Below, one piece after another: positions 10,661 through 54,373 of a stretch of DNA of 64,000 nucleotides. Made by a program: the position numbers and the translations under genes. Below the pieces are notes generated by a model, which did not search any database, had not been told where the DNA came from, and saw only the letters and a list, made by a program, of their open reading frames with translations. The DNA comes from Candidatus Undinarchaeota archaeon (lineage in GTDB: Archaea; SpSt-1190; JASMDC01), in the NCBI GenBank assembly GCA_964519305.1, contig CAZFHY010000013.1, positions 52,153-116,152 on the forward strand, written 5' to 3'. Positions within the stretch are counted from its first letter, which is position 1. Each line of letters opens with the position of its first letter.

Positions 10661-10732
10661 TGTTCTACTGCTCCATTACAGGCGGCCGAGAAAAGGCTAT
10701 ATATTTCTTTGCCTCCTGCGCCCCCAAGGGGT

Positions 10733-12049: not shown

Positions 12050-12092
12050 TACGACATACTCATCGATCATAAGAAATGGAGGAGAGAAGGAC

Positions 12093-13190: not shown

Positions 13191-13195
13191 TTATC

Positions 13196-14440
13196 ATGGC
13201 TGACCTCGTTGTACGCAACGCCCTTCTCAGGGGCGCGGACAAGACAGTGGACATCGTCATAGAGCAAGGTCGCATCGCCGCCCTGGAGCCCAAGTTCGGG
13301 GGCAAGGCATCGACCGAGGTAGACGCGGAGGGCGGGCTGGTTCTCCCGAGTTTCACTGATCCCCATATCCACCTGGACAAGGTGCTCATCTCCGAGGTCG
13401 TACGGGACAACGTGTCCGGTAACCTGGAGGAGGCCATCGCGATCATCTGGGAGAAGAAGAAGCGCTACACTCTCGACGACATCTTGGAGCGGGCCAGCAG
13501 GACCGTCCAATGGGCGGTCTTGAACGGGACCACCCGTCTCTGCAGTCATGTGGACGTGGACACCATCGGCGGTCTCATGCCCCTGAAGGGTGTGCTCGCG
13601 GCCCGTGAGAAGTGCAAGGACATAGCCGATATCCGGATCGTGGCGTTCCCCCAGGAGGGGATCGTCCAGGACGAGGGGTGCGAGGAGCTTATGTGGAAGG
13701 CCATGGAGATGGGCGCGGACATCGTCGGAGGGATGCCCTTCAACGAGATGACGTCCGACGATTCCAAGAAGCACCTGGACATCTGCTTCGAGATCGCCAA
13801 GGAGCATGATGCTCCCCTGGACATGCACGTTGACGAGACGGACAATCCGAACGCCCGGACCCTGGAGGAGTACGCTACGCGAGCCATCAGGAACGGGTTC
13901 GTCGGTCGTGTGACGGCCGGCCATACCTGTGCTCTGTCCTCGTACGATGACCACCACGCCGCCAAGGTCATAGGACTTGTGAAGCGAGCGGAAATGAACA
14001 TGATAACCAATCCTGCCACGAACCTCATGCTGCAAGGTAGACTGGACACAGGCAACATCCGCCGCGGGCTCACCCGTGTCAAGGAACTGCTGGCAGCTGG
14101 TGTGAACGTGGCCTACGGCCAGGACTGCGTCAAGGACACATTCTATCCGACCTTCGGTCAGTGCGATCTCCTAGAAGTGGGGCTCCTGTGCGCCCATGCG
14201 GTCCAACTGTCCATGCCGAAAGAGATCGAAACGCTCATGGACATGCCCACGGTGAACGCGTCACGGATGTTCGAGGTGGCGGACTACGGAATCGCTGCCG
14301 GTAACACGGCCGATATCGTGGTGCTCGCCGAGAAGACCCCGCAAGAAGCATTCCGCACACACATGCCCCGACCTGCGGTCATCAAAGGTGGTCGCATCAT
14401 TGCCCGATCATCGATCAATCGGGAGCTGGTACGCGGCTGA
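13196..14440 (+). CDS. Cytosine deaminase (CodA)-like metal-dependent amidohydrolase
   Basis: DPHIHLDK, AFPQEG, HVDETD, GHTC, GQDC.KD. Confidence 0.8.
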   Translation: MADLVVRNALLRGADKTVDIVIEQGRIAALEPKFGGKASTEVDAEGGLVLPSFTDPHIHLDKVLISEVVRDNVSGNLEEAIAIIWEKKKRYTLDDILERASRTVQWAVLNGTTRLCSHVDVDTIGGLMPLKGVLAAREKCKDIADIRIVAFPQEGIVQDEGCEELMWKAMEMGADIVGGMPFNEMTSDDSKKHLDICFEIAKEHDAPLDMHVDETDNPNARTLEEYATRAIRNGFVGRVTAGHTCALSSYDDHHAAKVIGLVKRAEMNMITNPATNLMLQGRLDTGNIRRGLTRVKELLAAGVNVAYGQDCVKDTFYPTFGQCDLLEVGLLCAHAVQLSMPKEIETLMDMPTVNASRMFEVADYGIAAGNTADIVVLAEKTPQEAFRTHMPRPAVIKGGRIIARSSINRELVRG

Positions 14441-16272: not shown

Positions 16273-16779
16273 TCACTTCCCATCGTACACGATCTCTGAA
16301 CCGAGGCAGCGCTTGTACTCCTTGAGGATTATGTAGGTGTGCTCGTTGTTGATCCCCTCAATCTTGAATATCTCGTTGCTCAGGAAGGAGTTCAGGTCCT
16401 CCTGGTCCTTGAATATCCCGTGTACCATGAGGTTGAAATTACCTGACACCGAGTACATGAGGGTCACCTGGGGAAGCACTTTGAGTCTGTTGGTGACAGC
16501 CTCCACCATGCTGGGGGATATGTTCAGACCGAAGATGACCGTGATGTTCTTCCCAAACTTCTTCGGATCGATGGCAGTGATGAAGCCAGTGATATATCCT
16601 TCCTCTCTGAGTCGTTTCACACGTGTACCCACAGTGACCGAGGATATTCCGATCTCCTGTCCGATCTTGCGGAACGACTTTCGAGCATCATTGTAGAGAT
16701 GGGTGAGAATCCTCTTGTCGATCGAGTCGATACCGATCGACGGGTCCATTCTTGCTTGGACACGCTTTTTGGTTTGCAT
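16273..16779 (-). CDS. Lrp/AsnC transcriptional regulator
   Basis: IDKRIL..L..DARKSF..IG, RVKRLREEGYI, VSGNFNL. Confidence 0.9.
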   Translation of the reverse strand: MQTKKRVQARMDPSIGIDSIDKRILTHLYNDARKSFRKIGQEIGISSVTVGTRVKRLREEGYITGFITAIDPKKFGKNITVIFGLNISPSMVEAVTNRLKVLPQVTLMYSVSGNFNLMVHGIFKDQEDLNSFLSNEIFKIEGINNEHTYIILKEYKRCLGSEIVYDGK

Positions 16780-16995: not shown

Positions 16996-17090
16996 TGTAG
17001 TTATGCGGTGTTTTCCCCTCATTAACAAACCTTAAAAGTCTGCTCTCGTTGGGCGAACACATCATGCCGGAAAGGCAGGGGTCTGATTCC

Positions 17091-19046
17091 ATGAAGATTG
17101 GCGTCTATATTTGTGACTGTGGAATAAATATCGGGGCAACGGTGGACGTACCCGCCGTTGTTGAGTTCGCAAAGACGTTGCCCAACGTCATTGTCGCTCG
17201 GGAGAACAAGTACACGTGCTCGGATCCGGGTCAGGAGACGATCAGGAAGGATATCAAGGAGCTCGGTGTGGACCGAATTGTGGTAGCTGCGTGCTCCCCT
17301 CGGATGCACGAGCCGACCTACCGGAACGTGCTGAAGGATTGCGGTCTGAGCCCCCATCTCCTTGAGATGGCCAACATCCGGGAGCAGTGTTCCTGGGTGC
17401 ACAAGGACAGGGCTGTCGGGACACCGAAGGCGAAGCAAATCGTCGCCGGTTCGGTCGCGCGAGCTGCGCTCCTTGAACCGCTCGAGTACCTAGAGGTCCC
17501 AACCATCCCCTCCGTGCTCGTGATCGGGGGCGGTATAGCGGGAATCCAGGCGGCACTCGATAGCGCTGACAAGGGATTCAAGACCTACCTTGTCGAGAAG
17601 GATCCCAGCATCGGCGGAAAGATGGCCCAGCTGGACAAGACATTCCCCACCATGGACTGTTCCGCGTGCATCCTCACCCCGAAGATGGTGGACGTGGCTA
17701 GGCATCCCAACATCGAACTAATCACCTACGCGGAGATCGAAGAGGTCTCCGGTTTCATCGGTAACTTCAAGGTGAAGGTCAAGAAGAAGACCCGGTTCGT
17801 CGACATAGAGAAGTGCAACGGTTGCGGTGAGTGCGCCGCAAACTGCCGTATGAAAGACCGCATCCCTAACGAGTTCGACGCCAACCTCGGCAAGCGGAGC
17901 GCGATCTACGTACCGTTCCCACAGGCAGTCCCGTTGAGGATGACGATCGATCCGGAGAAGTGCCTCATGCTCACTCTCGGCAAGTGCGGGAAGGGCCCCC
18001 TGTGCCAGGAGGCTTGCGACCGTGGTGCGATCGACTTCGAGCAGAAAGAGGAGATCGTGGAGCTGGACATCGGCTCCATCATCGTTGCCACCGGTTTCGA
18101 CCTATTCGATGCGAAGAGGAAGCCCAACTACGGCTATGGGACGTCCCCGCGCGTCATCACCGGCCTTGAGTTCGAGCGCATAGTCTCGGCCTCCGGCCCT
18201 TCCGGCGGTCACATCGAGATCGACGGCAAGGAACCGAAGAACGTGGCGTTCATCCAGTGCGTAGGTTCACGTGACAAGGAGACGAACGAGTACTGTTCGC
18301 GAGTCTGTTGCATGTACACGGCCAAACACGCCCACATGGTCCGGGACAAGCTCCCTGACTCCAACGTCATCGTGTACAATACAGATGTCCGCGCTTTCGG
18401 GAAGGGTTTCGAGGAGTTCTATAACAGGGTCAAGGACGAAGGCGTCGAGTACCGGCGACGGGAGCTCGATCAGAGCATCGAGGTCACCCCTGAGGGGGAT
18501 TCCGTGATCGTGAAGGCCGAGGGACACCCCGACTTCGCCGCCGATCTGGTCGTGCTGGCCACGGCCATCGAGCCGAGGCTGGACTCGAAGGAGCTGAAGA
18601 ACCAGCTGAAGATCTCATGCAGCCCGGACACGTTCCTCTTAGAGGCGCACCCGAAGCTGCGCCCCATCGACACGTTCACAGATGGCATATTCCTAGCCGG
18701 GTGCTGCCAGGGGCCCAAGGACATCCCTGACGCTGTTGCCCAGGCGAGCGGTGCCGCCGTGCGTGCCTGTATCCCCCTCGCTCAGGGGAAGGTCAGCGTG
18801 GAGCCTATCTTCGCTGCTATCGACGATGACTCATGCTCGGGATGCCGGGTATGTGAGAGCCTGTGCCCCTATGGCGCCCTGGAGTTCGATGCCGAGGAGA
18901 AGACCATGAAGATCCAGCAGGTACTCTGCAAGGGATGCGGGACCTGTGGTGCGGCCTGTCCCTCGGGTTCGATTACCATGAGCCATTTCAGTGACAGCCA
19001 GCTGATCGCGCAGCTTGTGGCCATCATCAAGAGCGGAGGTGCTTAA
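17091..19046 (+). CDS. hdrA: Heterodisulfide reductase subunit A (full length)
   Basis: [51 protein letters not shown]-terminal 2x[4Fe-4S]. Confidence 0.95.
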
Positions 19047-19048
19047 TC

Positions 19049-20392
19049 ATGAGGATTGGTGTATACGTTTGCGAGTGCGGTATCAACATCGCCGCCACCG
19101 TCGATGTGGAGAAGGTGGCGAAGGCCGCAGAGAGCCTGCCCGGCGTGAAGATCTCACGGTACTACAAGTACATGTGCTCGGACCCGGGCCAGGACATGAT
19201 CAAGAAGGACATCAAGGAGCTCAAGCTCGACCGCGTCGTCGTGGCGTCCTGCTCTCCCTTGATGCACGAACCTACCTTCCGAACTGCCTGTGAAGAGGCG
19301 GGCCTCAACAAGTACTGCTTCGAGATGGCCAACATCAGGGAGCAGTGCTCATGGGTGCACAAGGACAAGGAGAAGGGGACCGAGAAGGCCCTCGCCATCG
19401 TCCGAGCGTCCGTAGCTAAGGCCGCTCTCCTCCAGGCCATGGACGAGAAGCAGGTCCCTGTGACGAAGAAGGCGATGGTGATCGGCGGCGGTATCGCCGG
19501 TATCCAGACCGCGCTGGACATCGCCGACATGGGCTTCCCCGTGACCCTGGTGGAGCGCGAGCCCAGCGTAGGTGGGCACATGGCCCAGCTGGACAAGACA
19601 TTCCCCACCCTGGACTGCTCTGCATGCATCCTGACCCCCAAGATGGTCGACGTGGGAAGGCATCCCAACATCGAGCTCCTGACCTTCGCCGAGGTCGAGG
19701 AGATCGACGGCTTCGTAGGTAACTTCAACGTCAAGGTCAGGAAGAAGGCTAAGTCCATCGACACGGAGAAATGCACGAGCTGCGGTGAGTGCATGATCAA
19801 CTGCTTGGTCCGGTACCTCCCCCAACCCCAAGAGGTCCCGAGCATCCGTGACTCCATCGATGAGGACACCCTCAAGAAATACGATGCAGTCATCAGCAAG
19901 CACGAGGGCGGCGCCCTCATTCCGGTCCTACAGGACATCAACGCGACGTTCAACTACCTGCCTGCGGACGCCCTTGCCTGCGTTGCAGAGAAGCTGGAGC
20001 TCCCGCTGAGCCAGGTGTTCCACGTGGCGACCTTCTACACGGCCTTCAGCTTGGAGCCGCGCGGTGAGCACCTCATCAAGGTCTGCCTCGGCACTGCCTG
20101 TCACGTGCGGGGTGGCCATGGGGTCCTGGACGAGATCGTGCGACAGCTCGGTATCCAGCCCGGTGAGACCACCGAGGACAAGAAGTTCACACTGGAAACG
20201 GTCAACTGTCTCGGTTGCTGTGCCCTCGGCCCAGTGGTCGTTATCGATGACCAGTACTACCCGACGTCCCCCAGGAAGGTGGGCGCACTGCTCAATGAGT
20301 ACCGGACCACGGGAGGGGCCGGGATCAAGCCGGTCGCCCCCCCTGAGCAAACACTTGAGGAGCTGACGGAAACGGGAGGTGGACGAATATGA
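19049..20392 (+). CDS. Fusion: N-terminal half of HdrA + NuoE/HydC-like [2Fe-2S] domain
   Basis: HdrA motifs to [11 protein letters not shown], then [29 protein letters not shown]. Confidence 0.9.
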
Positions 20393-22242
20393 CGAAGCTC
20401 GCTAACGTCAAGGATCTAGAGGCGCTTAGTAAAGAGGTCGCTGCCACAAAGGACCCGAAGAAGCGCAGCATCATCGTATCAGGCGGTACCTGCGGTCGCG
20501 CCTTCGGTGGGGACGAACTGGTCGCCTCCGTAAAGAAGGAGCTCGAAGCACAGGGCCTTAAGGACAAGATCGACCTCAGGGTCACCGGTTGCCTTGGTTT
20601 CTGTGAGAGAGAGCCCATCATGCTGATCCTCCCTGAGAGGATATTCTACCCCCAGCCTGCCCCGAAGGACGTGGCCGAGATCATCACCGAGACCGTGGTC
20701 AACGGGAAGGTGATCGACCGGCTCCTGTTCACCGATCCCGCCACTGGCGAGAAGGTCGTGCAGGCACCGGAGGTACCCTTCTACAAGAAGCAGGAAAAGA
20801 ACGTCTTCGGCAGGAACGATAAGATCGATCCCACGAGCATCACCGACTACATCGGTATCGGAGGGTACGGCTCCCTGGCCAAGGCCCTCTCGTCCATGAA
20901 ACCCGAACAGGTCATCGGCACTATCAAGAAGTCGGGCCTGCGCGGGAGGGGTGGTGCTGGTTTCCCCACAGGGAAGAAGTGGGAGTTCTGTCGGAACGCA
21001 CCCGGTGATTACAAGTACATCATCTGCAACGCCGACGAGGGAGATCCCGGTGCCTTCATGGACCGGAGCATCCTGGAAGGTAATCCGAACAGTGTCCTTG
21101 AGGGGATGCTCATCGGAGCGTTCGCCATCGGTGCCAACAAGGGCATCATCTATGTGCGGGACGAGTACCCGCTGGCCGTCGAGCGACTCGAGAACGCTAT
21201 CAAGCAGGCGAAGGAGCTCGGGCTCATGGGCAAGAACATCCTCGGCTCCGGGTTCGATTTCGAGATCGAGATCCACCGCGGTGCCGGTGCCTTCGTTTGC
21301 GGCGAGGAGACATCTCTCATCGCCTCCCTTGAGAACCGTGCGGGCGAGCCGCGCCAGCGGCCCCCCTTCCCCGTTACCAAGGGTCTGTGGGGCAAGCCCA
21401 CCAACATCAACAACGTGAAGACCTGGGCCAATGTCCCCCTTATCATAGACAAGGGTGCCGACTGGTTCGCCGGTATCGGTACAGAGGGGAGCAAAGGAAC
21501 CATGATCTTCTCCCTGGTAGGCAAGGTCAACAACACGGGATTGGTCGAGGTCCCCATGGGGATCACTCTCCGGGAGATGGTCTACGACCTCGGTGGCGGT
21601 ATCAAGGACGGTAAGGCGTTCAAGGCCGTACAGATCGGCGGGCCTTCAGGTGGCTGTATCCCAGCGGACCTGCTCGACCTACCGATCGACTACGAGCGCC
21701 TCACAGAGGCCGGCGCCATGATGGGCTCCGGCGGTATGATCGTCATGGACGAGACCACCTGTATGGTGGACGTGGCCAAGTACTTCCTCAACTTCCTCAA
21801 GGGGGAGTCGTGCGGTAAGTGCACGCCGTGCAGGGAGGGGGTCATGCAGATGCACAAGATCATCAGTGACATCTGCGACGGCAATGGGAGCATGGAGGAC
21901 CTCAAGCTCCTCGAAGAGCTCGCTGCCTTCATCAAGGACGCGTCGCTCTGTGCTCTAGGGAGGACCGCGCCGAATCCGGTCCTGACCACGACCCGGTTCT
22001 TCATGGATGAGTACAAGGCCCACATCGAGAACAAGAAGTGCCCCGCGGGCGTGTGCAAGGCGCTGATCAGCTACAATATCAATGCCGAAGCGTGCACGGG
22101 TTGTACCCTGTGCGCGACACAGTGCCCACAAGAGGCCATCACTGGCGATAAGAAAGCAGCGCATACCATCGATTCGAAGAAGTGCATCAAGTGCGGCATC
22201 TGCAAGGATGTGTGCAACTTCGGTGCGGTGAGGGTCGACTAG
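20389..22242 (+). CDS. NuoF/HydB-like FMN/NADH subunit
   Basis: [52 protein letters not shown]-terminal 2x[4Fe-4S]. Confidence 0.93.
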
Positions 22243-22245
22243 GAG

Positions 22246-24021
22246 GTGATGATGATGGTAACATTCACTATTGACGGAGAAAAGGTCGAAGCTGACGAAG
22301 GTATGACGGTGCTAGAGTTCGCCCAGAAGCAGGGTATCGAGATTCCGACCCTGTGCTACCACAAGGCGCTCGAGCCCTACGGTGGTTGCCGGTTGTGCCT
22401 CGTGGAGGTCACCGATAACGGACGGACGAGCCTCATGGCCTCGTGCAGCTACCTGATCAAGGACGGTATCGAGATCAAGACCGCATCCGACCGGGTCATC
22501 ACGACCCGCAAGATGGTCATGGAGCTGTTGCTGGCGCGCTGTCCGAACTCGGACGATGTCAAGGCCCTGGCCAAGGAGATGGGCGTCGACGGGACGCGGT
22601 TCGCTATCAACGAGAACAAGGACGAGAAGTGCGTCCTGTGCGGCCTGTGCGTGCGCATCTGCAAGGACGTGATGGGGCTCGGCGTGACGGGCTTCGTGAA
22701 CCGCGGATACAAGCGTGATAAGACCACACCTTTCGGCGAGCTATCCAAGCTCTGCATGACCTGCGGCGCGTGCACCTTCGTGTGCCCGACGGACGCCTTC
22801 GGATTGGACGAGATCACATCGACCGCGCCCAAGCCGATCAAGTTCGAGTTCGAGGAGGGGCTGGTCAACCGACCTGCGGTGTACATCCCCTTCCCCCAGG
22901 CCGTCCCCAAGATCCCCGTGATCGACAAGGAGCGCTGTGCGTACTACACCACCGGGCAGTGCAAGGCCTGCGAGAAGTTCTGCGAGCAGGATGCGATCGT
23001 GTACGACCAGGAGGACGAGGTCGTCGACCGGGACGTGGGCGCCATCGTGGTGGCCACCGGGTTTGACATGTTCGATCCCGCGAAGACGCCCCAGTACGGC
23101 TACGGGACGTCCGCCCGCATCATCACTGGCCTGGAGTTCGAGCGTTACACCAACGCCTCGGGCCCCACCGGCGGTAAGATCAAGATCGATGGTAAGGAAC
23201 CGAAGAAGGTCGCCTTCATCTCGTGCGTCGGCTCGCGCGACAGAGAAGGCCATGAGTACTGTTCCAGGATCTGCTGCATGTACACGGCAAAACATGCGCA
23301 CATGGTCAGGGACAAGCTCCCCGGCTCCGAGGTCACGGTGTACTTCACCGATATGCGCGCCTTTGGAAAGGGCTTTGAGGAGTTCTATAACAGGGTCAAG
23401 GAAGAGGGCGTCGAGTACCGACGACGGGAGCTCGAGGAAGACATCCAGATCATCCCGAAGGGCAACGGCGTCGTTGTCAAGTCTGCCGGTCACCCGGACC
23501 TCGATGTGGACCTTGTTGTGCTCGCGACGGCAGTGGAACCTCGAGGGGACACGGGTGCCGTCCGAAGCCTCCTGAAGGTATCCTCCAGCATGGACGGATT
23601 CCTCCTGGAAGCCCACCCCAAGCTGCGACCCATCGACACCCACACTGACGGCATATTCCTGGCCGGTTGCTGCCAGGCACCAAGGGACGTCCCCGACACC
23701 GTGGCCCAGGCGAGCGGTGCGGCCTCGAGGGTCACATCGCTGCTGTCGAGGGAGAACCTCTCCATCGACGCCATCGTGTCGTTCGTCAATGAGAAGCAGT
23801 GCCGCGGATGCGGATTCTGCGTCGAGGTGTGCCCTTACGGGGCCATCGAGCTCGTGACCAAGGACCTGGCCGGGCGCGAGGTCATGATCGCCTCGGTGAA
23901 CGAGGCGCTGTGCAAGGGCTGTGGCTCATGCGCGGCCGCCTGTCTGTCCGGTGCGATGCAACAGAAGGGCTTCACGGACGAGCAGCTGCTTGATGCTCTT
24001 GACGGACTGGTGGGGGGGTGA
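22246..24021 (+). CDS. Fusion: NuoG/HydA N-terminal Fe-S domain + C-terminal half of HdrA
   Basis: IPTLC..GGCRLCLVE, CVLCGLCVRIC, CMTCGACTFVCP, then [39 protein letters not shown]. Confidence 0.9.
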   Translation: MMMMVTFTIDGEKVEADEGMTVLEFAQKQGIEIPTLCYHKALEPYGGCRLCLVEVTDNGRTSLMASCSYLIKDGIEIKTASDRVITTRKMVMELLLARCPNSDDVKALAKEMGVDGTRFAINENKDEKCVLCGLCVRICKDVMGLGVTGFVNRGYKRDKTTPFGELSKLCMTCGACTFVCPTDAFGLDEITSTAPKPIKFEFEEGLVNRPAVYIPFPQAVPKIPVIDKERCAYYTTGQCKACEKFCEQDAIVYDQEDEVVDRDVGAIVVATGFDMFDPAKTPQYGYGTSARIITGLEFERYTNASGPTGGKIKIDGKEPKKVAFISCVGSRDREGHEYCSRICCMYTAKHAHMVRDKLPGSEVTVYFTDMRAFGKGFEEFYNRVKEEGVEYRRRELEEDIQIIPKGNGVVVKSAGHPDLDVDLVVLATAVEPRGDTGAVRSLLKVSSSMDGFLLEAHPKLRPIDTHTDGIFLAGCCQAPRDVPDTVAQASGAASRVTSLLSRENLSIDAIVSFVNEKQCRGCGFCVEVCPYGAIELVTKDLAGREVMIASVNEALCKGCGSCAAACLSGAMQQKGFTDEQLLDALDGLVGG

Positions 24022-24026
24022 GGACC

Positions 24027-24452
24027 ATGGCAGATGATACTTTCGAACCGAACATCGTAGCGTTCCTGTGCAACTGGTGCTCGTATACGGGTGCCGACCT
24101 AGCGGGGACCAGCAGGATCCAGTACCCGCCCAACGTGAAGGTCGTGCGGGTCATGTGCAGCGGCCGGGTGAATCCCATGCTCGTCGTCCACGCTCTTCAG
24201 CAGGGTGCGGACGGTGTGCTCATATCAGGATGTCACCCCGGCGACTGCCACTACACACAGGGCAACTACTTCGCCCGCAGGAGGATGAAGCTCATGACGA
24301 GCCTTCTGGAGTACGTGGGCATCGATCCCAAGCGGGTTCAGATGTCCTGGGTCTCCGCTTCCGAGGGGCAGAAGTTCGCTGACGTGATCACAAAGGTCAC
24401 CGAGGACGTGCGGACGCTCGGACCGAACACCGAGTTCCCGAGGGAGGTGTGA
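24027..24452 (+). CDS. MvhD/FlxD [2Fe-2S] adaptor
   Basis: FLCNWCSY.GAD, VMCSGRV, GCHPGDCHY. Confidence 0.92.
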   Translation: MADDTFEPNIVAFLCNWCSYTGADLAGTSRIQYPPNVKVVRVMCSGRVNPMLVVHALQQGADGVLISGCHPGDCHYTQGNYFARRRMKLMTSLLEYVGIDPKRVQMSWVSASEGQKFADVITKVTEDVRTLGPNTEFPREV

Positions 24453-25399
24453 AGATGGACGAGGAAAAGATGCGTTCGACCGCCCGCGATCTACTGAGCA
24501 AGGGAGAGGTCAAGTACGTTATCGGATACGAACAGGCCGGCTTTGGACAAAAGGTGCGGCCCTGCATCATCACGAAACCCGAGGAGACCGACAAGCTAGT
24601 GCTCTCGCCCATGTGCAAGAACAACCTCGCTGTCTATCTCACGCTCGAGCCGCCCGAAGAGAAGGGTAAGATCGCCGTTATCGCTAAGGGTTGCGATGCC
24701 CGCGCACTGGTCCAGCTCATCCAGGAGCGGGGCTTCGAGCGAGATAACCTGGTCATACTGGGCGTTCCCTGCCCGGGCATGATCGATCCGGACAAGCTCT
24801 ATGAAGAGGTCCTCGAGGAGGACATCGTCGGGATCTCCGAGTCAAGCGACACGTTCATCATAAGTACGAAGGGCGGCGAGCGCACCTTCAAGAAGGCGGA
24901 CGTGATCTTCGATGAGTGCGGTCACTGTGCTCATCCCACTCCGCTCATCGCCGATAAAATGCTCGGCGAGGTCATCGAAAGTGGTGCCTTGGAGCTGACC
25001 GATCCTACAAAGGACATGTCGCCTGGAGAGCGATGGGCCTACTGGTCGGAAAAGTTCGAGACGTGCATCCGGTGCTATGCCTGCAGGCAGGCATGCCCGC
25101 TCTGCTTCTGTGAGGAGTGCGCCGCCGACTCGCTCCGACCCAACTGGGTCCGACGGTCAGTGAACCGCTCAGAGAATGCGGCATGGCATTTCATGCGCGC
25201 CTTCCATCATGCAGGGCGGTGCTCGGAGTGTGGCGAGTGCGAGCGTGTGTGTCCTGTTGGGCTCCCTCTCATGGTCCTCAACAAGATGCTCGCTCAAGAG
25301 GCCAAGGATGTCTTCGACTACACGGCCGGTACTGACGCTGATGGAAAGCCGCTCTTGACATCATTCGAGACCGATGACAAGGAGGACTTTATCCTGTAG
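24449..25399 (+). CDS. FlxC-like 4Fe-4S protein (FrhB/FdhB-related)
   Basis: KGCD, CIRCYACRQACPLCFC..C, AGRCSECGECERVCP. Confidence 0.8.
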   Translation: MKMDEEKMRSTARDLLSKGEVKYVIGYEQAGFGQKVRPCIITKPEETDKLVLSPMCKNNLAVYLTLEPPEEKGKIAVIAKGCDARALVQLIQERGFERDNLVILGVPCPGMIDPDKLYEEVLEEDIVGISESSDTFIISTKGGERTFKKADVIFDECGHCAHPTPLIADKMLGEVIESGALELTDPTKDMSPGERWAYWSEKFETCIRCYACRQACPLCFCEECAADSLRPNWVRRSVNRSENAAWHFMRAFHHAGRCSECGECERVCPVGLPLMVLNKMLAQEAKDVFDYTAGTDADGKPLLTSFETDDKEDFIL

Positions 25400-26407
25400 G
25401 TGATCATCATGGACGCGATACTCAATAAGGACAATCTCGACGAGCTCATCACCAAGCTGGGGTACGAGGTGCTCGCACCCGTCAAGAAGGACAAGACCGT
25501 GTCCTTCGAGACGGTCAAGAAAGCCTCGGACATCGCCTGGGGGTCCGCGAACACCGCGGTGCCCCCCAAGCGACTGTTCTTCCCTCAGACCGAAGAGCTT
25601 TTCACCTACGATGGCGATGAGATCACCGACCGGGCGCCCAAGCCGGAGAAGCGGCTCGTGCTCGGTATCCGGCCCTGCGACGCCCGCAGCTTCGCCATCC
25701 TGGACCCGCTCTTCACCAAGGACTTCAACGATCCCTACTACAAGAACAGGAGGGACAACACGGTGCTCGTGGGCCTTGCATGCACGGCCCCCGGAAGGAA
25801 CTGTTTCTGCACTTCGCTAGGAGCGGGACCATTCGACACCAAGGGTCTTGACCTGCTCCTGGTGGACCTCGGGGACAAGTTCCTCGTTCGCTCCGCTTCC
25901 GAGAAGGGTGAGAAGTTCCTTGCAGAGAACAAGAGCCTCTTCGGTGAGGCCGGCAACGATGCCGCGGCCGCCGATGAGCTCAAGGCGAAGGCCGAAGGTA
26001 TGATGCACCGCACGATCGATGTCTCCACGCTTCCCACGAAGCTGAAGACGCTGTTCGACGACCCGATCTGGGACGACCTTGCACAGACATGTGTTGGTTG
26101 TTATGCGTGCACCTACCTCTGCCCCACCTGCCACTGCTTCGATATCCAGGACGAGGTCCGGGGCAAGAAGGGACGACGTATCCGTATCTGGGACAGCTGT
26201 GTCAATCCCGAGTACACCCTTCACGCCTCAGGGTACAACCCCCGACCCGGACGGACGAACCGGATGAGGAACCGGATCCTGCACAAGTACCAGTACTACC
26301 CGGAGAACTTCGACGTTATCGCATGTGTGGGTTGTGGACGATGTATCGACCACTGCCCGGTGAGCAATGACCTAGTTGAGTTCCTGGGAAAGATAGGAGG
26401 GAAGTGA
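25400..26407 (+). CDS. FlxB/AsrA-like 4Fe-4S protein
   Basis: GIRPCD, CFC, CVGCYACTYLCPTCHC, WDSC, CVGCGRCIDHCP. Confidence 0.85.
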   Translation: MIIMDAILNKDNLDELITKLGYEVLAPVKKDKTVSFETVKKASDIAWGSANTAVPPKRLFFPQTEELFTYDGDEITDRAPKPEKRLVLGIRPCDARSFAILDPLFTKDFNDPYYKNRRDNTVLVGLACTAPGRNCFCTSLGAGPFDTKGLDLLLVDLGDKFLVRSASEKGEKFLAENKSLFGEAGNDAAAADELKAKAEGMMHRTIDVSTLPTKLKTLFDDPIWDDLAQTCVGCYACTYLCPTCHCFDIQDEVRGKKGRRIRIWDSCVNPEYTLHASGYNPRPGRTNRMRNRILHKYQYYPENFDVIACVGCGRCIDHCPVSNDLVEFLGKIGGK

Positions 26408-26408: not shown

Positions 26409-27245
26409 ATGGAGAATCCCTACGTACCCATCTCCTCCACAATCGTGAACCTGAAGGAGGAGGTCAAGGGCGAGCGCGCCATTACGACATTCAGGACAGA
26501 GTTCAAGGACAAGAAGCTTGCAGAAAGCTTCGACTTCATACCTGGCCAGTGCGCCATGGTCACCCTTCTGGGGAAAGGGGAGTGCTTCTTTGCCATCTCC
26601 TCCTCACCCACAAAGAAGGGGTACCTGGAGTTCAGCGTCATGAAGCTGGGCAAGGTGACCGACGCCCTCCACGAACTGGAGATCGACGATGTCCTTGGCG
26701 TCCGCGGGCCCTACGGGAACGGCTTCCCTGTTGACGAGTGGAAGGGCAAGAACATCCTCTGCATCGGGGGAGGTATCGGCCAGGCGCCACTGAGGTCGCT
26801 CATCCAGTATGTGATGGACAACCGGAAGGATTTCGGGAAGCTGGACGTGATCTACGGAGCACGTTCTACTGCCGACCTGTGCTACATGGACGAGTTCGAG
26901 GAGATGGAGGCACGCGATGATGTCGACGTCCATCTCTCCATCGACAAGGCCGAGGATGGCTGGAAGCGGTTCGTCGGGTTCGTCCCCGACAACCTCAAGC
27001 GCCTCGCGCCCTCGCCGAAGGACACAATCGCCATCACCTGCGGGCCACCGATTATGATCAAGTTCGTGATCCAGGCCTTGGAAGGGCTCGGGTTCACCCC
27101 CGACCAGATATTCACGACCCTTGAGATGCGCATGAAGTGCGGTATCGGCAAGTGCGGCCGGTGCAACATCGGCAGCCTCTATGTATGCAAGGACGGTCCC
27201 GTGTTCTCATGGGAGGTCCTCAAGGACGTCAAGGGGGAGATGTGA
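26409..27245 (+). CDS. FlxA/AsrB-like FAD/NAD(H) oxidoreductase
   Basis: PGQ, RGPYGNGF, GGGIG.AP, CGPPIM, MKCGIGKCGRC..VCKDGPVF. Confidence 0.88.
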   Translation: MENPYVPISSTIVNLKEEVKGERAITTFRTEFKDKKLAESFDFIPGQCAMVTLLGKGECFFAISSSPTKKGYLEFSVMKLGKVTDALHELEIDDVLGVRGPYGNGFPVDEWKGKNILCIGGGIGQAPLRSLIQYVMDNRKDFGKLDVIYGARSTADLCYMDEFEEMEARDDVDVHLSIDKAEDGWKRFVGFVPDNLKRLAPSPKDTIAITCGPPIMIKFVIQALEGLGFTPDQIFTTLEMRMKCGIGKCGRCNIGSLYVCKDGPVFSWEVLKDVKGEM

Positions 27246-27250
27246 TCACA

Positions 27251-27673
27251 ATGGCTAACGATTCATTCGAACCGGAGATCGTCGGGATCCTGTGCAACTG
27301 GTGCACCTACGCGGGGGCTGACCTCGCCGGGACCAGCAGGTTGGAGTACCCGCCGAACATCAAGTCCATCCGTGTGATGTGCACCGGCAGGGTCGATCCC
27401 ATGTTCGTGGTCAAGTCGCTGAAGGAGGGCGCCGACGGCGTGTTCATCAGCGGGTGCCACCTGGGCGACTGTCATTACCAGTCGGGCAACTACAAGTCGG
27501 TGAGGAGGATCGTTCTCCTCACTAGGATGCTGGAAGAAATGGGCATCAGTGCCGACCGCGTTGCCTTCGAGCACATCTCGGCGTCTGAGGGACAGAAGTT
27601 CGCCGACAGGGTTACCGAGTTCACCAACAGGCTCAAGGAGCTTGGTCCCAATCCCCTTAAGGAGGTCGAGTAA
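27251..27673 (+). CDS. mvhD: F420-non-reducing hydrogenase subunit D
   Basis: LCNWCTYAGAD, MCTGRVD, GCHLGDCHY. Confidence 0.9.
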   Translation: MANDSFEPEIVGILCNWCTYAGADLAGTSRLEYPPNIKSIRVMCTGRVDPMFVVKSLKEGADGVFISGCHLGDCHYQSGNYKSVRRIVLLTRMLEEMGISADRVAFEHISASEGQKFADRVTEFTNRLKELGPNPLKEVE

Positions 27674-27674: not shown

Positions 27675-28688
27675 ATGGCCGAGAAGCTTAAAGTTGCATT
27701 TCACTGGCTCGCGTCCTGCGGTGGCTGCGAGGTCGCCGTGGTGGACCTGGACGAGAAGATCCTGGACGTTATCAAGGTCCTGGACATCCTGTTCTGGCCC
27801 GTGGCCCTGGACGGTAAGTACGAGGACATCAAGGCGATGCCCGACAAGTACCTGGACATCGCCATCATCAACGGCGCCGTCCGCACTACCGAGCAGGAAG
27901 AGCACGCCAAGCTCTTCCGCGCCAAGGCCAAGGTAGTCGTGTCCTTTGGTTCCTGTGCGTGTTTCGGCGGCGTACCCGCCCTGGCCAACCTGACCACAAA
28001 GGAGAAGATCCTGCAGACCGCGTACGAGACCACCGTGTCCACTGACAACCCCAAGAAAACACGCCCCCAGCTGGAGACGAAGATGAACGGCCGTACGCTG
28101 GAGCTGCCGGACCTGTACGAGTCGGTGAAGGCACTGCACCAGGTCATCGACGTGGACTACTTCCTGCCCGGCTGCCCGCCCATGGTGCCTCTCATCGAGA
28201 AGCTCGTGGCCGTGGCCGCTAACTTCGCCGAGACCGGCGAGCTCCCGCCCAAGGGAGCGGTAATCGCTGGCGAGAAGACCCTGTGCGACGAGTGTCCGCT
28301 GGAGCGTAAGGAGAAGATGGTCGCCGGTATCGAGCGCCCTCATACCTTCGCGCCGCCCGATCCCGAGCGGTGCCTGCTGGAGCAGGGTCTCATCTGTATG
28401 GGGCCCGCCACACGCGACGGTTGTGACAGCCAGTGCATCAAGGCGAACATGCCCTGCCGGGGCTGCATGGGCCCCCCGCCGAAGGTGGATGACCAGGGCC
28501 TTAAGATGCTCTCCGCGCTTGCGTCCATCATGGGTGTCGAGAACGAGACTGAGATGTCCCGCCAGGACCTCGAGGAGTTCATGAAGACGGTGCCCGATCC
28601 TTGGGGTACATTCTACCGCTTCGGTATGTCCACAGCGACGCTCAACAAGTCACTTGAGGGCGAGAAGCGAGAAACGGAGGAGAAATAA
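27675..28688 (+). CDS. mvhG: Group 3c [NiFe]-hydrogenase small subunit
   Basis: SCGGCE, GSCACFGG, PGCPP, CDEC, CLLEQG.ICMGP..C..C..CRGC. Confidence 0.92.
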   Translation: MAEKLKVAFHWLASCGGCEVAVVDLDEKILDVIKVLDILFWPVALDGKYEDIKAMPDKYLDIAIINGAVRTTEQEEHAKLFRAKAKVVVSFGSCACFGGVPALANLTTKEKILQTAYETTVSTDNPKKTRPQLETKMNGRTLELPDLYESVKALHQVIDVDYFLPGCPPMVPLIEKLVAVAANFAETGELPPKGAVIAGEKTLCDECPLERKEKMVAGIERPHTFAPPDPERCLLEQGLICMGPATRDGCDSQCIKANMPCRGCMGPPPKVDDQGLKMLSALASIMGVENETEMSRQDLEEFMKTVPDPWGTFYRFGMSTATLNKSLEGEKRETEEK

Positions 28689-30182
28689 ATGGCAGACGAC
28701 CTTTCAGAGAAGGCGAAGAAGGAGCGCCGGTTGACAATAGACCCGATTACGCGCCTTGAGGGGCACGGCAAGATCGAAATCTTCCTTGACGATAAAGGCG
28801 ATGTCGAGAACGCGGTCCTACAGGTGCCCGAGCTCAGGGGTTTCGAGCAGTTCGCTGTTGGACGTCCCGGTGAGGAGATGCCCCGCATCACGCCACGTAT
28901 CTGTGGCGTGTGCCCCATCGCGCACCACTTCGCCTCCACAAAGGCGCTGGACGCATGCTACAACGTGAAGCCCACTTCGGCTGCATTGAAGCTGCGAGAG
29001 CTTATGTACTCCGGGGCCTACCTCTACGACCACACCCTGCACTTCTATTTCCTTGGGGGGCCCGACTTCGTCGTCGGCCCCACTGCCCCGAAGATGGAGC
29101 GCAACATCCTAGGTGTCATCGGCAAGGTCGGCCTGGACATAGCCGGCGAGGTCATCAAGCACCGTGCCTACGGCCAGAAGATACAGGCCATGCTCGGTGG
29201 TAAGGCCACTCACCCCGTGTGTGGTCTACCTGGCGGCGTGTCCAAGGGCCTGAACGAGGAAGAGGTCGAAGAGATTAAGCAGATGGCCGATTCCTCCGTT
29301 GAGTTCGCCAAGTTCAGCCTACAGATCTTCAACGACGTCGTGCTGAAGAACAAAACCTATGTGGACATCATCCTGGGGGACACCTACACGTTCCCGACCT
29401 ACTACATGGGTCTGGTGGACGAGAACAACAAGGTGAACTTCTACGACGGAAAGGTCCGCGTGGTCGATCCCGAGGGCAAGGAGTACGTCAAGTTCGAGGA
29501 AAAGGACTATCTCGACCATGTGGCCGAGCACGTCGAGCCGTGGTCGTACTGCAAGATGCCCTTCCTCAAGAACATAGGCTGGAAGGGGCTCACTACAGGC
29601 AAGGACTCGGGCATCTACCGCGTAGCGCCGCTGGCGCGGCTCAACGCCGCTGACGGCATGGCCACACCGCTGGCTCAGGAGGCCTACGACCAGATGTACG
29701 AGATCCTTGGTGGCAAGCCGGTGCACTCCACTCTGGCATTCCACTGGGCACGGCTCATCGAGCTGCTGTACGCCTGTGAACGACTCCAGGAGCTGGCGAA
29801 CGATCCGGAAATCCTCTCGGACGACATCCGTGCCGAACCGGGAGAGCCCGGAGAGGGCGTCGGTGTGATCGAAGCCTGTCGCGGTACGCTGTTCCACCAT
29901 TACAAGCTGGACGATAAGGGCATGATCGAGAAGGCCAACCTCATCGTGGCCACGGTGAATAACTATGCCGCGATCAACGTCACCGTCAAGCAGGCCGCGT
30001 CCTCGCTCATCCACAACTTCCAGGTGGACGAGGGCATCCTGAACATGGTGGAGATGGCCTTCCGTGCGTACGATCCGTGCTTCGGGTGCGCCACCCACAC
30101 CCTCCCGGGGCAGATGCCCATGGAGGTCAACCTCCGCACGCGCGGAGGGGACGTGTTCAAGCGGTTCAGTCGGGGGATCTAA
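28689..30182 (+). CDS. mvhA: Group 3c [NiFe]-hydrogenase large subunit
   Basis: TRLEGHG, ELRGFE, RICGVCP.AH, RAYDPCFGCATH plus C-terminal extension. Confidence 0.95.
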   Translation: MADDLSEKAKKERRLTIDPITRLEGHGKIEIFLDDKGDVENAVLQVPELRGFEQFAVGRPGEEMPRITPRICGVCPIAHHFASTKALDACYNVKPTSAALKLRELMYSGAYLYDHTLHFYFLGGPDFVVGPTAPKMERNILGVIGKVGLDIAGEVIKHRAYGQKIQAMLGGKATHPVCGLPGGVSKGLNEEEVEEIKQMADSSVEFAKFSLQIFNDVVLKNKTYVDIILGDTYTFPTYYMGLVDENNKVNFYDGKVRVVDPEGKEYVKFEEKDYLDHVAEHVEPWSYCKMPFLKNIGWKGLTTGKDSGIYRVAPLARLNAADGMATPLAQEAYDQMYEILGGKPVHSTLAFHWARLIELLYACERLQELANDPEILSDDIRAEPGEPGEGVGVIEACRGTLFHHYKLDDKGMIEKANLIVATVNNYAAINVTVKQAASSLIHNFQVDEGILNMVEMAFRAYDPCFGCATHTLPGQMPMEVNLRTRGGDVFKRFSRGI

Positions 30183-30208: not shown

Positions 30209-30769
30209 ATGCCTCGACGTACGCTCCTGCTGGGACTGGGCAATCCCCTTCTCAGTGATGACGCTGTCGGGCTGGTTCTGGCCCGAAAGGTGTACAGGGC
30301 GCTCGCAGCCCATCACGGGCTAGGTCCTGCAGGTCTTGAGCATGAACCACCACTCGGGGAGCTGGACCTGCCGGCGCCCGAGCTGACGCTCCCCAACGGG
30401 GATGTGGTGGGGCTCGCCGAGGCCGCTATATCAGGTATCGCAGTGCTCGATGTCGCTTGCGGCTGGGACCTGCTGGTGCTGATGGATTCCATCAAGACCG
30501 TTGGCGGAAAACCAGGTATGGTGATGCGACTTGGGCTCGAAGCCTTTCAGGATACTGTGCGCACGGCATCACCGCACGACCTGAACTTAGCCTCGGCTCT
30601 CGAGTTCGGTGCCAAACAGGGATTCGACGTCCCCGATGAGTTCGTGATCTACGCCATCGAAGCGGTGGACGTGCTCACCTTCAACGAAGGATTGTCACCC
30701 CAGGTCGAGAACGCCCTGGATGGGGCGGTGGACCAGATACTGCGCGAGCAGTTCAACGTGGACGGCTGA
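30209..30769 (+). CDS. Hydrogenase maturation protease
   Basis: GLGNPLLSDDAVG, MDSI, SPHD; directly follows mvhA. Confidence 0.88.
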   Translation: MPRRTLLLGLGNPLLSDDAVGLVLARKVYRALAAHHGLGPAGLEHEPPLGELDLPAPELTLPNGDVVGLAEAAISGIAVLDVACGWDLLVLMDSIKTVGGKPGMVMRLGLEAFQDTVRTASPHDLNLASALEFGAKQGFDVPDEFVIYAIEAVDVLTFNEGLSPQVENALDGAVDQILREQFNVDG

Positions 30770-53680: not shown

Positions 53681-54349
53681 CTACAGACCCAGTGCAACTA
53701 CGAGCTCGGCCATACCTAGGCCGTCGCGGGCGTTGGTGCGCACGCTCTTGGCCTTCGGGTTCACCTTGCTGAGGTCGCCCTCGAGCTTCTCGATCTCGAG
53801 CCCCATGGCCTCGGCCATGTCCACCTTGTTCACGGCCACGACGTCGGCCTCCCTGAAGATGAACGGGTGCTTGAGCACCATGTGCGGCCCCTCTGTGCAC
53901 GAGATGAGCACGAGTTTCCGGTGGGCACCCAGCGGGAACTCAGCTGGGCAGATAAGGTTCCCCACGTTCTCGATGATGAGGATCTCGGTCTTCTCCAGGT
54001 CAATCTTGTCCAGCGCCTTCTTCACGAGGTTCGCGTCCAGGTGGCATTCCTTTCCTGTGTTGATCTGGACTACCTTCCCGCCGCTCTCGCCGATCAGGTC
54101 AGCGTCGATGGTGGTGGTGAGGTCGCCTGTGAACACGGCCACTCGCGAGCCCCCGAGTTCTTTCACGAGCCGGCTGATGAGCGTCGTCTTCCCAGTGCCT
54201 ATGCTCCCCATCACGTTGATCCCGAGTATCCCGTGCGCGTCGAGCAGTTTCCGGTTCTGTTCCGCAAGCTCGTTGTTCGCCCGAAGTAGATCCTCCTCGA
54301 GCTCTATATCGAACGTCTCTCCGGGTCCGGGCTTTATCGTTTCGACCAT
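53681..54349 (-). CDS. hypB: Hydrogenase nickel-insertion NTPase
   Basis: GTGKT, CHLDA, ENVGNLICP, NKVD. Confidence 0.93.
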   Translation of the reverse strand: MVETIKPGPGETFDIELEEDLLRANNELAEQNRKLLDAHGILGINVMGSIGTGKTTLISRLVKELGGSRVAVFTGDLTTTIDADLIGESGGKVVQINTGKECHLDANLVKKALDKIDLEKTEILIIENVGNLICPAEFPLGAHRKLVLISCTEGPHMVLKHPFIFREADVVAVNKVDMAEAMGLEIEKLEGDLSKVNPKAKSVRTNARDGLGMAELVVALGL

Positions 54350-54373
54350 TGTATCATCAATCCTCCAGTATCG

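Follow-up and report, generated by a model that had tools for sequence, protein, structure and literature searches.

The hdrA gene at 19049..24021 of the window (the whole stretch of DNA analysed, 64,000 nucleotides) is interrupted within its inserted ferredoxin domain: the break separates the two Cys motifs of that domain, and a BamGHI-like Bfu cassette of three genes (bfuC-bfuB-bfuA) stands in the gap. An intact hdrA lies next door. The features are:

16273..16779, minus strand: divergent Lrp/AsnC regulator, standing where many related operons have hdrCB
17091..19046, plus strand: intact hdrA, all marker residues located; ORF called from 17049, Met15 being the probable start
19049..20392, plus strand: HdrA(N)-BfuC fusion gene, 447 aa, by domain and profile matches
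19049..19810, plus strand: HdrA N-half, with N-terminal cluster domain (C8, C10, C43, C68), GxGxxG strand, C190/C193 and C242/C245/C248/C252
19484-19501, plus strand: GGGIAG motif, HdrA N-half
19772-19804, plus strand: first Cys motif of the inserted ferredoxin domain (C242, C245, C248, C252)
19865..20302, plus strand: BfuC/NuoE/HydC domain, with C1 [2Fe-2S] ligands C346, C351, C387, C391
20389..22242, plus strand: BfuB/NuoF/HydB gene, 617 aa, with A222-M224, F302, GGPSG 417-421, B1/B2, B3/B4 and a three-Cys B5
22246..24021, plus strand: BfuA-HdrA(C) fusion gene, 591 aa, by domain and profile matches
22255..22803, plus strand: short BfuA/NuoG-N domain, with [2Fe-2S] (C37, C48, C51, C67) and 2x[4Fe-4S] (C129-C139, C170-C180)
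22837..24021, plus strand: HdrA C-half, with the second Cys motif of the inserted ferredoxin domain (C231, C239, C242, C246), ATG strand, E299, C327/C339/C343/C344, K349, GIFLAG and C-terminal 2x[4Fe-4S]
22843-22863, plus strand: FEFEEGL motif, HdrA C-half
23044-23061, plus strand: IVVATG motif, HdrA C-half
23128-23145, plus strand: GLEFER motif, HdrA C-half
23260-23292, plus strand: CSRICCMYTAK motif, HdrA C-half
23650-23667, plus strand: GIFLAG motif, HdrA C-half
24018..24452, plus strand: mvhD in the FlxD-type position, standard length, 144 aa
24449..27245, plus strand: three Flx-like genes (Flx names being a reading of gene order and domains), namely the next three entries
24449-25399, plus strand: FrhB/FdhB-like Fe-S protein
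25400-26407, plus strand: AsrA-like gene
26409-27245, plus strand: AsrB-like FAD/NAD-binding subunit
27242..27673, plus strand: second mvhD, its probable start placed by aligning it with the first
27675..30182, plus strand: mvhG and mvhA, Mvh/Vhu-type [NiFe] hydrogenase with both metal-binding CxxC motifs
30209..30769, plus strand: hydrogenase maturation protease (ORF called from 30077)

The preliminary description had read ORF 19049 as HdrA turning into NuoE/HydC, and ORF 22246 as a NuoG/HydA-type Fe-S domain followed by HdrA, resumed where the first half ends. Profile searches bear out both readings. Residues 2-255 of ORF 19049 match positions 1-256 of the NCBIfam HdrA2 profile and residues 273-418 match NuoE; residues 5-186 of ORF 22246 match HydA/HoxU and residues 188-586 match HdrA2 positions 247-638. 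The NuoG-like part needs one refinement: a motif check found no His-ligated cluster motif in it. In alignment with the neighbouring intact hdrA, the two halves are complementary (65% identity over 252 aligned residues for the N-half, 60% over 383 for the C-half), and the four HdrA domains, spread over two genes rather than carried on a single chain, are complete once the halves are summed. The division of motifs was also as described, with GGGIAG in one half and ATG, GIFLAG, GLEFER and CSRxCCMYxxK in the other. All eight inserted-ferredoxin cysteines are retained, shared out over both halves, and the N-terminal cluster cysteines (C8, C10, C43, C68) and Cys197 of HdrA (here C193) are kept, C190/C193 aligning with C194/C197 of 5ODC. 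The Lys and Glu at the HdrA FAD are present as K349 and E299 of the C-half, which align with K409/E356 of 5ODC.

BfuB contains FMN, SLBB, 4Fe-4S and C-terminal 2x[4Fe-4S] domains (PF01512, PF10531, PF10589, PF00037), and the adjacent BfuC (PF01257) and BfuA (PF13510 and Fer4) domains are both fused to HdrA parts. The B1 ligands are C475, C478, C481 and C521, and the B2 site (C458, C496, H545, C551, C556) has the conserved His that is a Bfu signature (PMC9304861). The three sequence criteria for bifurcating BfuB (PMC7311640), comprising A/E232 with M234, F367 and GGPSG, correspond to A222, M224, F302 and GGPSG 417-421, and the ferredoxin-binding clusters B3/B4 are kept. The N-terminal B5 site, which was essential as a [2Fe-2S] cluster in an [FeFe] enzyme, carries three Cys instead of four; its motif lines up with the one in T. 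sibiricus NfnB, which is active in bifurcation and binds Zn at that site. The bifurcating-HydB features noted earlier for NuoF, including the C-terminal 2x[4Fe-4S], thus stand, except that B5 has only three Cys. Bifurcation by BfuB is predicted from these motifs, whose relation to activity is correlative.

The split layout is not a product of chance or mis-assembly, because contigs of another study bridge the junctions, the homologues are fused and the same layout occurs at other genome loci. Contigs of run X9, from a different study (~90% and ~95% alike), span the N junction at 19498-21060 and the C junction at 21759-23070, and X13 also bridges the C junction (22354-23052), this support coming from assembled contigs, not raw reads. 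Contigs of X1 and X2 match without differences and may be the source of this DNA.

The layout is widespread in uncultured anaerobes. The best 120 homologues listed for each junction are fusions, and a search for HdrA(N)-NuoE / NuoF / NuoG-HdrA(C) synteny found it at 36 of the 80 genome loci fetched. Sampling 150 genomes of the phylum to which a Thermoplasmata genome belongs gave it in 13. In databases it goes under names that mask it, such as 'NADH:ubiquinone oxidoreductase subunit E'. The break position is identical in all split loci examined. C-half motifs occur in none of 120 N-half homologues, and an N-half motif lies in the first 260 residues of a single C-half homologue (1/120). All eight inserted-ferredoxin cysteines, and likewise all 16 cysteines of the two BfuA motifs and the two inserted-domain motifs, are kept in 118-119 of 119 homologues. 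E299 is present in 119/119, K349 in 118/119 and C190/C193 in 119/119, the homologues having been chosen by junction score and K349 and C190/C193 lying outside the scored parts. Four split loci (L031, L125, L129, L132) have TGA at the C197 place, probably encoding selenocysteine. A literature search, whose coverage left out one key HdrA review, returned no description of the split layout.

The two halves very probably assemble in trans into one HdrA, as motif complementarity, the kept inserted-ferredoxin cysteines and complex prediction together suggest. The predicted FAD fold closes in trans at 0.86 against 0.00 for the best of three controls, possibly through likeness to solved HdrA; 51 of 78 solved complexes reach the mark used, as do 2 of 108 mismatched pairs, and the prediction gives no cluster distances. 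Runs agree in at least 96% of contacts, with partner pLDDT of at least 85. The best predicted contacts pair residues 143-146 with 266-271, and the interface includes 241-261 and 208-253; the chain-1 residues touching BfuA are not specified by the prediction and could be BfuC contacts. In the model, strands of both chains make up the FAD-binding sheet, and the ligands of each inserted [4Fe-4S] cluster would likewise come from both. In seven loci (L024, L031, L038, L124, L141, L144, L160) the N-half is a free gene ending just past the first motif, and therefore must work in trans there.

From hdrA to flxA the genes abut or overlap (intergenic gaps 2, -4, 3, -4, -4, 0, 1), and the catalytic inputs, MvhGA hydrogenase and an FlxA-like NAD-binding subunit, are encoded by neighbour genes. 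A domain scan of the operon proteins found no hdrBC; the only clear hdrCB pair of the genome lies on contig C21, beside another, divergent hdrA. In the genome, which is 99.8% complete, neither mcrA nor dsrC was found. Matches to CO dehydrogenase, RnfD and MetF suggest that both NADH and reduced ferredoxin can be used by the host. A second NAD(P)-linked [NiFe] hydrogenase cluster lies at 49040-52901.

Partners vary among relatives while the Bfu insert stays constant. Of 45 split loci, 31 have mvhD, 17 mvhA and 7 flx genes. Among the 36 with more than 1.5 kb upstream, hdrB/C occurs in 14, an HdrD-like gene in 1 and a membrane QmoC-like gene in 10, so that an HdrC-type partner stands upstream in 25/36 and 11/36 have no high-potential partner gene.

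The inserted domain is the low-potential exit of HdrA (PMC9012536, PMC13518236, bioRxiv 10.64898/2026.04.10.717634), and the outer cluster of BfuA lies 18-20 residues from it, with linkers of only about 20 residues. The low-potential electron may therefore be handed to Bfu instead of free ferredoxin, and we consider it probable that Bfu is wired at this exit. Because the cut falls there, HdrA bifurcation feeding Bfu bifurcation is the likeliest wiring. In forward mode, H2 (through MvhGA) or NADH (through the Flx-like genes) would enter through MvhD, and the HdrA FAD would send one electron to a high-potential acceptor: here an HdrBC-bound disulfide, if HdrBC from another locus joins, and in relatives quinone or methylene-H4F. 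The second electron would reach FMN by way of the inserted clusters and BfuA, and Bfu would there split electrons again, to NAD+ and ferredoxin, giving in sum 4 H2 + 2 RSSR + NAD+ + 2 Fd(ox) -> 4 RSH + NADH + 2 Fd(red). As a candidate dimer partner, the intact HdrA may join the split copy in an asymmetric dimer with two MvhD-linked inputs. As predicted chemistry, this tandem reading fits the features seen. That both sites bifurcate in the forward direction is an evenly balanced proposition, and we would give the predicted whole (HdrA in trans, exit wiring and tandem bifurcation) about an even chance of being the best explanation.

By arithmetic, the mean acceptor potential would rise by 55 mV, since the potential at which Bfu accepts is about -390 mV, not -500 mV. 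With a -140 mV acceptor the H2 threshold falls from 67 Pa to 0.9 Pa, and reduced ferredoxin would, if the tandem reading is true, be obtainable at ~70-fold lower H2. If the heterodisulfide potential is instead set at -281 mV, the value cited in PMC13518236, the tandem would continue to require ~220 Pa H2, and driving it with NADH would be uphill.

There are precedents both for a complex that holds two bifurcation modules and for a second flavin module inserted at the same HdrA site. The class II benzoyl-CoA reductase of Geobacter metallireducens, Bam[(BC)2DEFGHI]2, likewise joins an HdrA-type and a HydBC/Bfu-type module (bioRxiv 10.64898/2026.04.10.717634; PMC9304861), two distinct bifurcation modules in one complex being unreported before it according to the former source. 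It shares a short BfuA with three clusters, a related BfuB and, for a tandem-HdrA variant of the split layout, a related HdrA module. In that variant, the cassette sits in the module that keeps C194/C197 (46/46 short N-halves) and matches the bifurcating module of BamE; the second module has neither C197 nor the inserted domain (116/116). However, BamE is whole, separate BamGHI chains feed its input side through BamF, and its inserted ferredoxin domain is the exit to BamBC, whereas here Bfu is fused into that exit. Instead of a whole tandem BamE with a long BamF, the present HdrA is split and of a single type, with an MvhD of normal length (144 aa); the 12 operon proteins scanned gave no match to the BamBC tungsten module or BamD. 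On the likeliest wiring, the order from HdrA to Bfu would be the reverse of that in Bam.

HdrA9-11 of ANME-1, with two proposed bifurcation sites, have a 500-aa NfnB-like insertion in the same domain (PMC9012536), but in one chain with an in-frame NADPH-type insert, whereas three genes, FMN/Bfu chemistry and an HdrA on two chains are found here. HdrABC-MvhAGD of methanogens (PDB 5ODC, 8RVU, 7BKB) shares all HdrA domains and marker residues, MvhD, MvhG and MvhA; its HdrA is one chain whose inserted domain reduces ferredoxin or a polyferredoxin, in contrast to this operon without hdrBC in a genome where mcrA was not found. The solved structure that the BfuA part matches best is that of WorABCSL; with this and other Type 2 Bfu enzymes (PDB 9MQX; PMC12318220, PMC9304861) it shares the lack of A3 and A5, but here fusion extends to the third-substrate module, as in Type 1, and also to BfuC, and the third-substrate module is itself one half of a different bifurcating enzyme. 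Unsplit hdrA-mvhD-nuoEFG clusters (Desulfotignum phosphitoxidans, PMC4046663; L120, L145, L161) have the same genes side by side, with neither split nor fusion. The present operon also resembles Flx-Hdr in having mvhD, FrhB-like, AsrA-like and AsrB-like genes in order. Flx-Hdr is defined by a flxDCBA run behind hdrA with hdrBC in the same operon, from which this operon differs in having no hdrBC.

Other electron routes have to be weighed against tandem bifurcation. The same wiring could run in reverse for fermentative or syntrophic electron disposal, with Bfu merging NADH and reduced ferredoxin, HdrA adding thiol, quinol or methyl-H4F electrons, and H2 (or NADH) leaving via MvhD. Both modules are reversible (PMC9304861), metV/metF genes adjoin the operon in L113, L124 and L014, and symmetrical arithmetic makes H2 release feasible below about 1-10 Pa; such double confurcation nevertheless requires very low H2, which the second NAD(P)-linked hydrogenase could release more simply, and we judge it rather unlikely. 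A smaller chance falls to HdrA being mainly scaffold and wire, at least in this genome, so that Mvh-HdrA-Bfu would be a bifurcating [NiFe] hydrogenase with no high-potential branch (2 H2 -> NADH + 2 Fd(red)). The operon without hdrBC, the failure to find an [FeFe] hydrogenase in the genome and the existence of NiFe-Bfu enzymes favor this, whereas the FAD Glu/Lys, C197 and high-potential cluster ligands kept in nearly all homologues, and the frequent HdrC-type partner upstream, argue against it.

It is improbable that Bfu serves simply as an NAD(H) diaphorase and that the HdrA FAD alone bifurcates, the insert turning the ferredoxin exit into an NAD(H) port. Although B5 lacks its first Cys, isolated BamGHI is largely reduced by NADH alone and the motif-based prediction is correlative, the A/M, F and GGPSG residues are all present, B3/B4 are kept and the B5 motif is shared with a bifurcating enzyme. 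Least probable is a Bam-type order, in which mid-potential electrons would pass from BfuA into the input arm, made up of the C-terminal ferredoxin domain and MvhD, and an outside acceptor would be reduced by the inserted clusters. The solved wiring of BamI to BamE, and Bam-like loci that hold the same parts and whose BfuB sequences intermix with those of split operons, are consistent with it; but the BamI-BamE link uses a BamF more than 100 residues longer than MvhD, the input here is occupied by MvhGA or Flx-like genes, and the linkers to the inserted domain are short.

Tentatively, and with somewhat less than even confidence, we suggest that tandem bifurcation represents an unrecognised widespread enzyme class, with two unrelated bifurcation machines, HdrA and then Bfu, covalently in series, exchangeable partners, cross-chain FAD and clusters and, here, an asymmetric dimer. 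If so, Mvh or Flx would be exchangeable at the input and HdrBC, HdrD, QmoC-like or MetVF at the high-potential side, and the enzyme would act as a gear by which a weak donor, either H2 near 1 Pa or NADH, gives NADH and reduced ferredoxin. It would be a second and apparently common case of two bifurcation modules per complex, in the opposite order, and a possible answer to the role of the many HdrA genes in non-methanogenic sediment archaea and bacteria. The gene fusion fixes the wiring genetically, which makes the layout testable, and a naturally split flavoprotein with putative cross-chain Fe-S clusters points to a site that tolerates insertion and could be used to build redox wires.

In 7 of 45 split loci the ferredoxin-binding end of BfuB is replaced by a GltD-like domain, and GAYAN replaces GAxMD in 3-4 split loci; therefore not all members need share one chemistry. 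In one locus, L098, both fusions are present but bfuB is missing between them.

The division of HdrA by an NADH/ferredoxin bifurcation (Bfu) module is a real, widespread and uncharacterised variant. In the window, it lies within eleven abutting redox genes that form one run on the + strand, as follows.

17049-19046, +, intact hdrA, first gene of the redox run
19049-20392, +, HdrA(N)-BfuC, 447-aa product
20389-22242, +, BfuB
22246-24021, +, BfuA-HdrA(C), 591-aa product
after BfuA-HdrA(C), +, mvhD, three Flx-like genes, second mvhD, mvhG, mvhA, then a maturation protease

Re-location of motifs and ORFs confirmed every coordinate of the preliminary description. In the 447-aa product, residues 2-255 match the HdrA2 profile and residues 273-418 match NuoE; in the 591-aa product, residues 5-186 match HydA/HoxU and residues 188-586 match HdrA2. 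As had been claimed, the halves match complementary parts of both HdrA2 and the intact hdrA next door, with 65% (N) and 60% (C) identity to the latter. HdrA is cut between the two Cys motifs of its inserted ferredoxin (2x[4Fe-4S]) domain, such that C242-C252 close the N-half and C231-C246 begin the C-half. By the usual arrangement in ferredoxins, each inserted cluster would draw 3+1 ligands from these two motifs. Promoter and terminator scans performed no better than chance.

Both junctions are supported by assembled contigs, not raw reads: contigs of run X9, which belongs to another study (~90% and ~95% identity), span the N and C junctions, and X13 spans the C junction. Matches from runs X1 and X2 are exact but possibly the source of the window. 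At the N junction, the best 120 of 4906 matches all carry the Cys motif and the NuoE motif, and 119/120 carry GxGxxG; at the C junction, the best 120 of 2889 matches all cover 96-100% of the junction (both totals take in unfused proteins and are not family sizes). Bridging contigs, fused homologues and genome loci with the same layout rule out mis-assembly or a frameshift, and the conservation of residues rules out a pseudogene relic.

A species-genome search for HdrA(N)-NuoE / NuoF / NuoG-HdrA(C) synteny confirmed 593 loci; among the 80 that ranked best, both fusions are present in 27, with the N fusion only in 5 (where the contig or locus ends), the C fusion only in 4 and neither in 44. Carriers are annotated as Altiarchaeales, Thermoplasmatota, KSB1, Zixibacteria, Nitrospirota, Planctomycetota, Myxococcota, Gemmatimonadota, Bacillota, Acidobacteriota, Ignavibacteriota, Bacteroidota, Chloroflexota, Thermodesulfobacteriota and Aminicenantes. 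Full-length junction-query matches were found in 13/150 genomes sampled from the phylum of genome G041 and in 2/150 from that of G044 (centre genomes not counted), and the layout was not found in the 40 searched relatives of the host genome, one of the same genus included. A single-protein metagenome scan returned mostly unfused NuoE, and 10 of 80 loci were subsequently assigned to the split class. The 36 split loci with names all come from MAGs or uncultured sources and no cultured carrier was identified; the proteins P0072 and P0132 bear the source label '[Eubacterium] cellulosolvens'.

A literature search, whose coverage of subscription papers and supplements was poor, found no description of the split layout; none is given in the available parts of PMC5736913, PMC10327494, PMC12318220, PMC11406978, PMC11237513 and PMC11216029, and the available supplement text of PMC9304861 holds no Hdr term. 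Related systems differ in architecture. According to the accessible portion of a preprint (bioRxiv 10.64898/2026.04.10.717634), class II benzoyl-CoA reductase (BCRII) also has both modules, but on separate chains and with Bfu at the input. From the sections available, HdrA9-11 of ANME-1 carry an NfnB-like insert at the same HdrA site in a single chain (PMC9012536), and unsplit hdrA-mvhD-nuoEFG clusters have already been reported (PMC4046663).

Among the best-scoring homologues, the four N-half and four C-half Cys of the inserted domain and the twelve Cys of BfuA are each kept in 118-119/119, the FAD Glu in 119/119, the FAD Lys in 118/119 and C190/C193 in 119/119. C-half motifs occur in 0/120 best-scoring N-half proteins, and an N-half motif occurs near the start of 1/120 C-half proteins. 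The break position is identical in every split locus examined; seven loci encode the N-half as a separate gene ending just past the first Cys motif. Four loci have TGA at the position of C197 (5ODC numbering of C193), probably encoding selenocysteine. These sequence patterns indicate that the two halves are retained to function together.

The proposal that the halves reassemble an HdrA is supported by their complementarity and by a two-chain ESMFold2 model of the FAD fold (residues 134-420 with 4-588), which scored 0.86 against 0.00 for the best control, the mark being attained by 51/78 solved complexes and 2/108 mismatched pairs. The runs showed at least 96% contact agreement and a partner pLDDT of at least 85, and the surest predicted contacts pair the GxGxxG strand (143-146) with the ATG strand (266-271). 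Split-gene halves may pass by likeness to solved HdrA, and the prediction therefore indicates compatibility, not binding.

Judged by its sequence, the inserted module resembles a functional Bfu. BfuB, the only NuoF match of the host genome, has bifurcating enzymes as its best solved-structure matches, with A. mobile HydB first. Features of a bifurcating HydB are present in it: A222, M224, F302 and GGPSG, which correspond to the bifurcation criteria in the consulted part of PMC7311640, the five B2 ligands (a set that includes a conserved His in the accessible text of PMC9304861), and B1, B3 and B4. The B5 site consists of three Cys and aligns with T. sibiricus NfnB, an active enzyme described with Zn at B5 (PMC12018979, in part). 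BfuA contains motifs for one [2Fe-2S] and two [4Fe-4S] clusters, and no His-ligated cluster motif was found in it, as in the Type 2 Bfu enzymes in the available text of PMC9304861.

The low-potential exit of HdrA is its inserted ferredoxin domain, according to the portions available of PMC9012536, PMC13518236 and the BCRII preprint, and BfuA ends ~20 residues ahead of the C-half Cys motif. In a second, tandem variant, the N-half is short and the C-half is followed by another, complete HdrA module. Among the matches listed, which are unpaired sets with pairing taken from loci, C197 and the inserted domain are absent from 116/116 second modules and C194/C197 are kept in 46/46 short N-halves; thus, it is the module with a complete low-potential route that houses the cassette. 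In BamE, the HdrA-type subunit of BCRII, the module bearing this route is the bifurcating one, as far as the preprint's available text goes. That text gives Gln at the second FAD of BamE, whereas the second module of the tandem type (P0241-P0360) keeps the FAD Lys in 116/116 of the matches listed.

The split complex most likely works as HdrA-then-Bfu bifurcation in series, a reading that combines the observed anatomy, conservation and synteny with the modelled two-chain fold; cluster contact, direction, stoichiometry and a heterodimer with the intact HdrA are what we infer. H2 via MvhGA, or NADH via the Flx-like subunits, would reduce the HdrA FAD through MvhD. One electron would then pass to a high-potential acceptor and the second would travel via the inserted clusters and BfuA to FMN, at which Bfu would apportion electrons to NAD+ and ferredoxin. 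At the potentials given in the available part of PMC9304861 (NADH -280, ferredoxin -500, H2 -414 and heterodisulfide -140 mV), the calculated mean acceptor potential moves from -320 to -265 mV, the H2 threshold with the -140 mV acceptor falls from 67 to 0.9 Pa, and the value with NADH as donor changes from -40 to +20 mV. The calculated gain of 55 mV is independent of the acceptor; with an acceptor at -281 mV (PMC13518236, in part), the H2 threshold remains at ~220 Pa, and running on NADH would be uphill.

The high-potential branch is the weak point, because hdrBC is absent from the window's split-HdrA operon and the host's hdrBC pair, on contig C21, adjoins a different hdrA. The host, an archaeon on a reading of its genes, has matches to CO dehydrogenase, RnfD and MetF, and none to mcrA, dsrC, group 4/NuoD or [FeFe] hydrogenase, in a genome that is 99.8% complete. 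The remaining ports differ between loci. Of 45 split loci, 17 carry mvhA and 7 carry flx genes at the input, and metV/metF lie close by in three split loci. The 36 split loci with room upstream hold hdrB/C (14), an HdrD-like gene (1), a QmoC-like membrane protein (10) or none of these (11). L105, L106 and L108 have compact operons in which hdrCB and mvhDGA are both present. The QmoC-like gene (390-400 aa, with an HdrC-like Fe-S domain and, in four examined, 4-5 hydrophobic segments) precedes the N-half in L026, L116, L117, L118, L122, L131, L133, L136, L137 and L151, which suggests that some split complexes are linked to quinone.

A purely local origin, in which the module entered a duplicate of the adjacent hdrA, is not supported as a full account, since the junctions are common to distant phyla. 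The intact hdrA of the window is sister to its split C-half (support 99-100) but not clearly to the split N-half, and no recent conversion tract stands out. A single origin of all split HdrA parts is not supported either: in the HdrA C-core tree, single-type and tandem-type proteins separate, the latter grouping with first modules of BamE-like proteins (support 97), and an AU test, run on a quick tree with groups named after a first tree was seen, rejects monophyly both of the split C-halves as a whole (p 2e-76) and of the single type alone (p 0.0012). The test kept 52/114 rows, with second modules, long branches and near-copies dropped. BfuB of split operons is likewise not one clade, its sequences being interspersed among BamH-like and other ones. 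These phylogenies would fit a junction that stayed fixed while the parts around it were exchanged repeatedly.

Several loci vary the arrangement. In L120 (5195-14853), the order is hdrC-hdrB-intact hdrA-mvhD-flxC-nuoE-nuoF-nuoG-flxB-flxA, with the cassette inside the flx run; the tree places this unsplit hdrA as sister of split copies. In split operons L014, L026, L109, L110, L116 and L160, BfuB is fused to GltD-like Fer4_20 + Pyr_redox, which replaces the C-terminal ferredoxin domain. Accessory genes of ~2.7 kb separate bfuB from bfuA-hdrA(C) in L107, L118, L131, L133, L136 and L137; where Pfam gave matches, in two of these loci, they are to CBS and PHP domains. L098 (9332-12483) has both fusion genes side by side, bfuB being absent between them.

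Additionally, the host encodes an HdrC-like domain fused to a GltD-like pyridine-nucleotide oxidoreductase domain (contig C5, 115104-118971; orthologue L178:7652-11691) right before hdrA-mvhD, among fwd- and cdh-looking genes; it is possibly an NAD(P) module at an HdrA high-potential exit. Elsewhere in the window, another [NiFe] hydrogenase cluster, which is of the sulfhydrogenase type (49040-52901; AsrA-like, AsrB-like, small and large subunits), is followed by hyp maturation genes (53681-58949). Two amidohydrolase genes flank a dihydroorotate-dehydrogenase-like gene that encodes a C-terminal 2x[4Fe-4S] domain (10709-14440); together they may serve pyrimidine or purine catabolism. A 737-aa membrane protein (5953-8166) has an extracellular-looking N-terminal region, followed by a part resembling NapH (Fer4_5) and by a ferredoxin at the C-terminus. 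The genomes of the host and its congener measure 3.6-3.8 Mb, and those of 15 others of the class searched 0.6-1.2 Mb.
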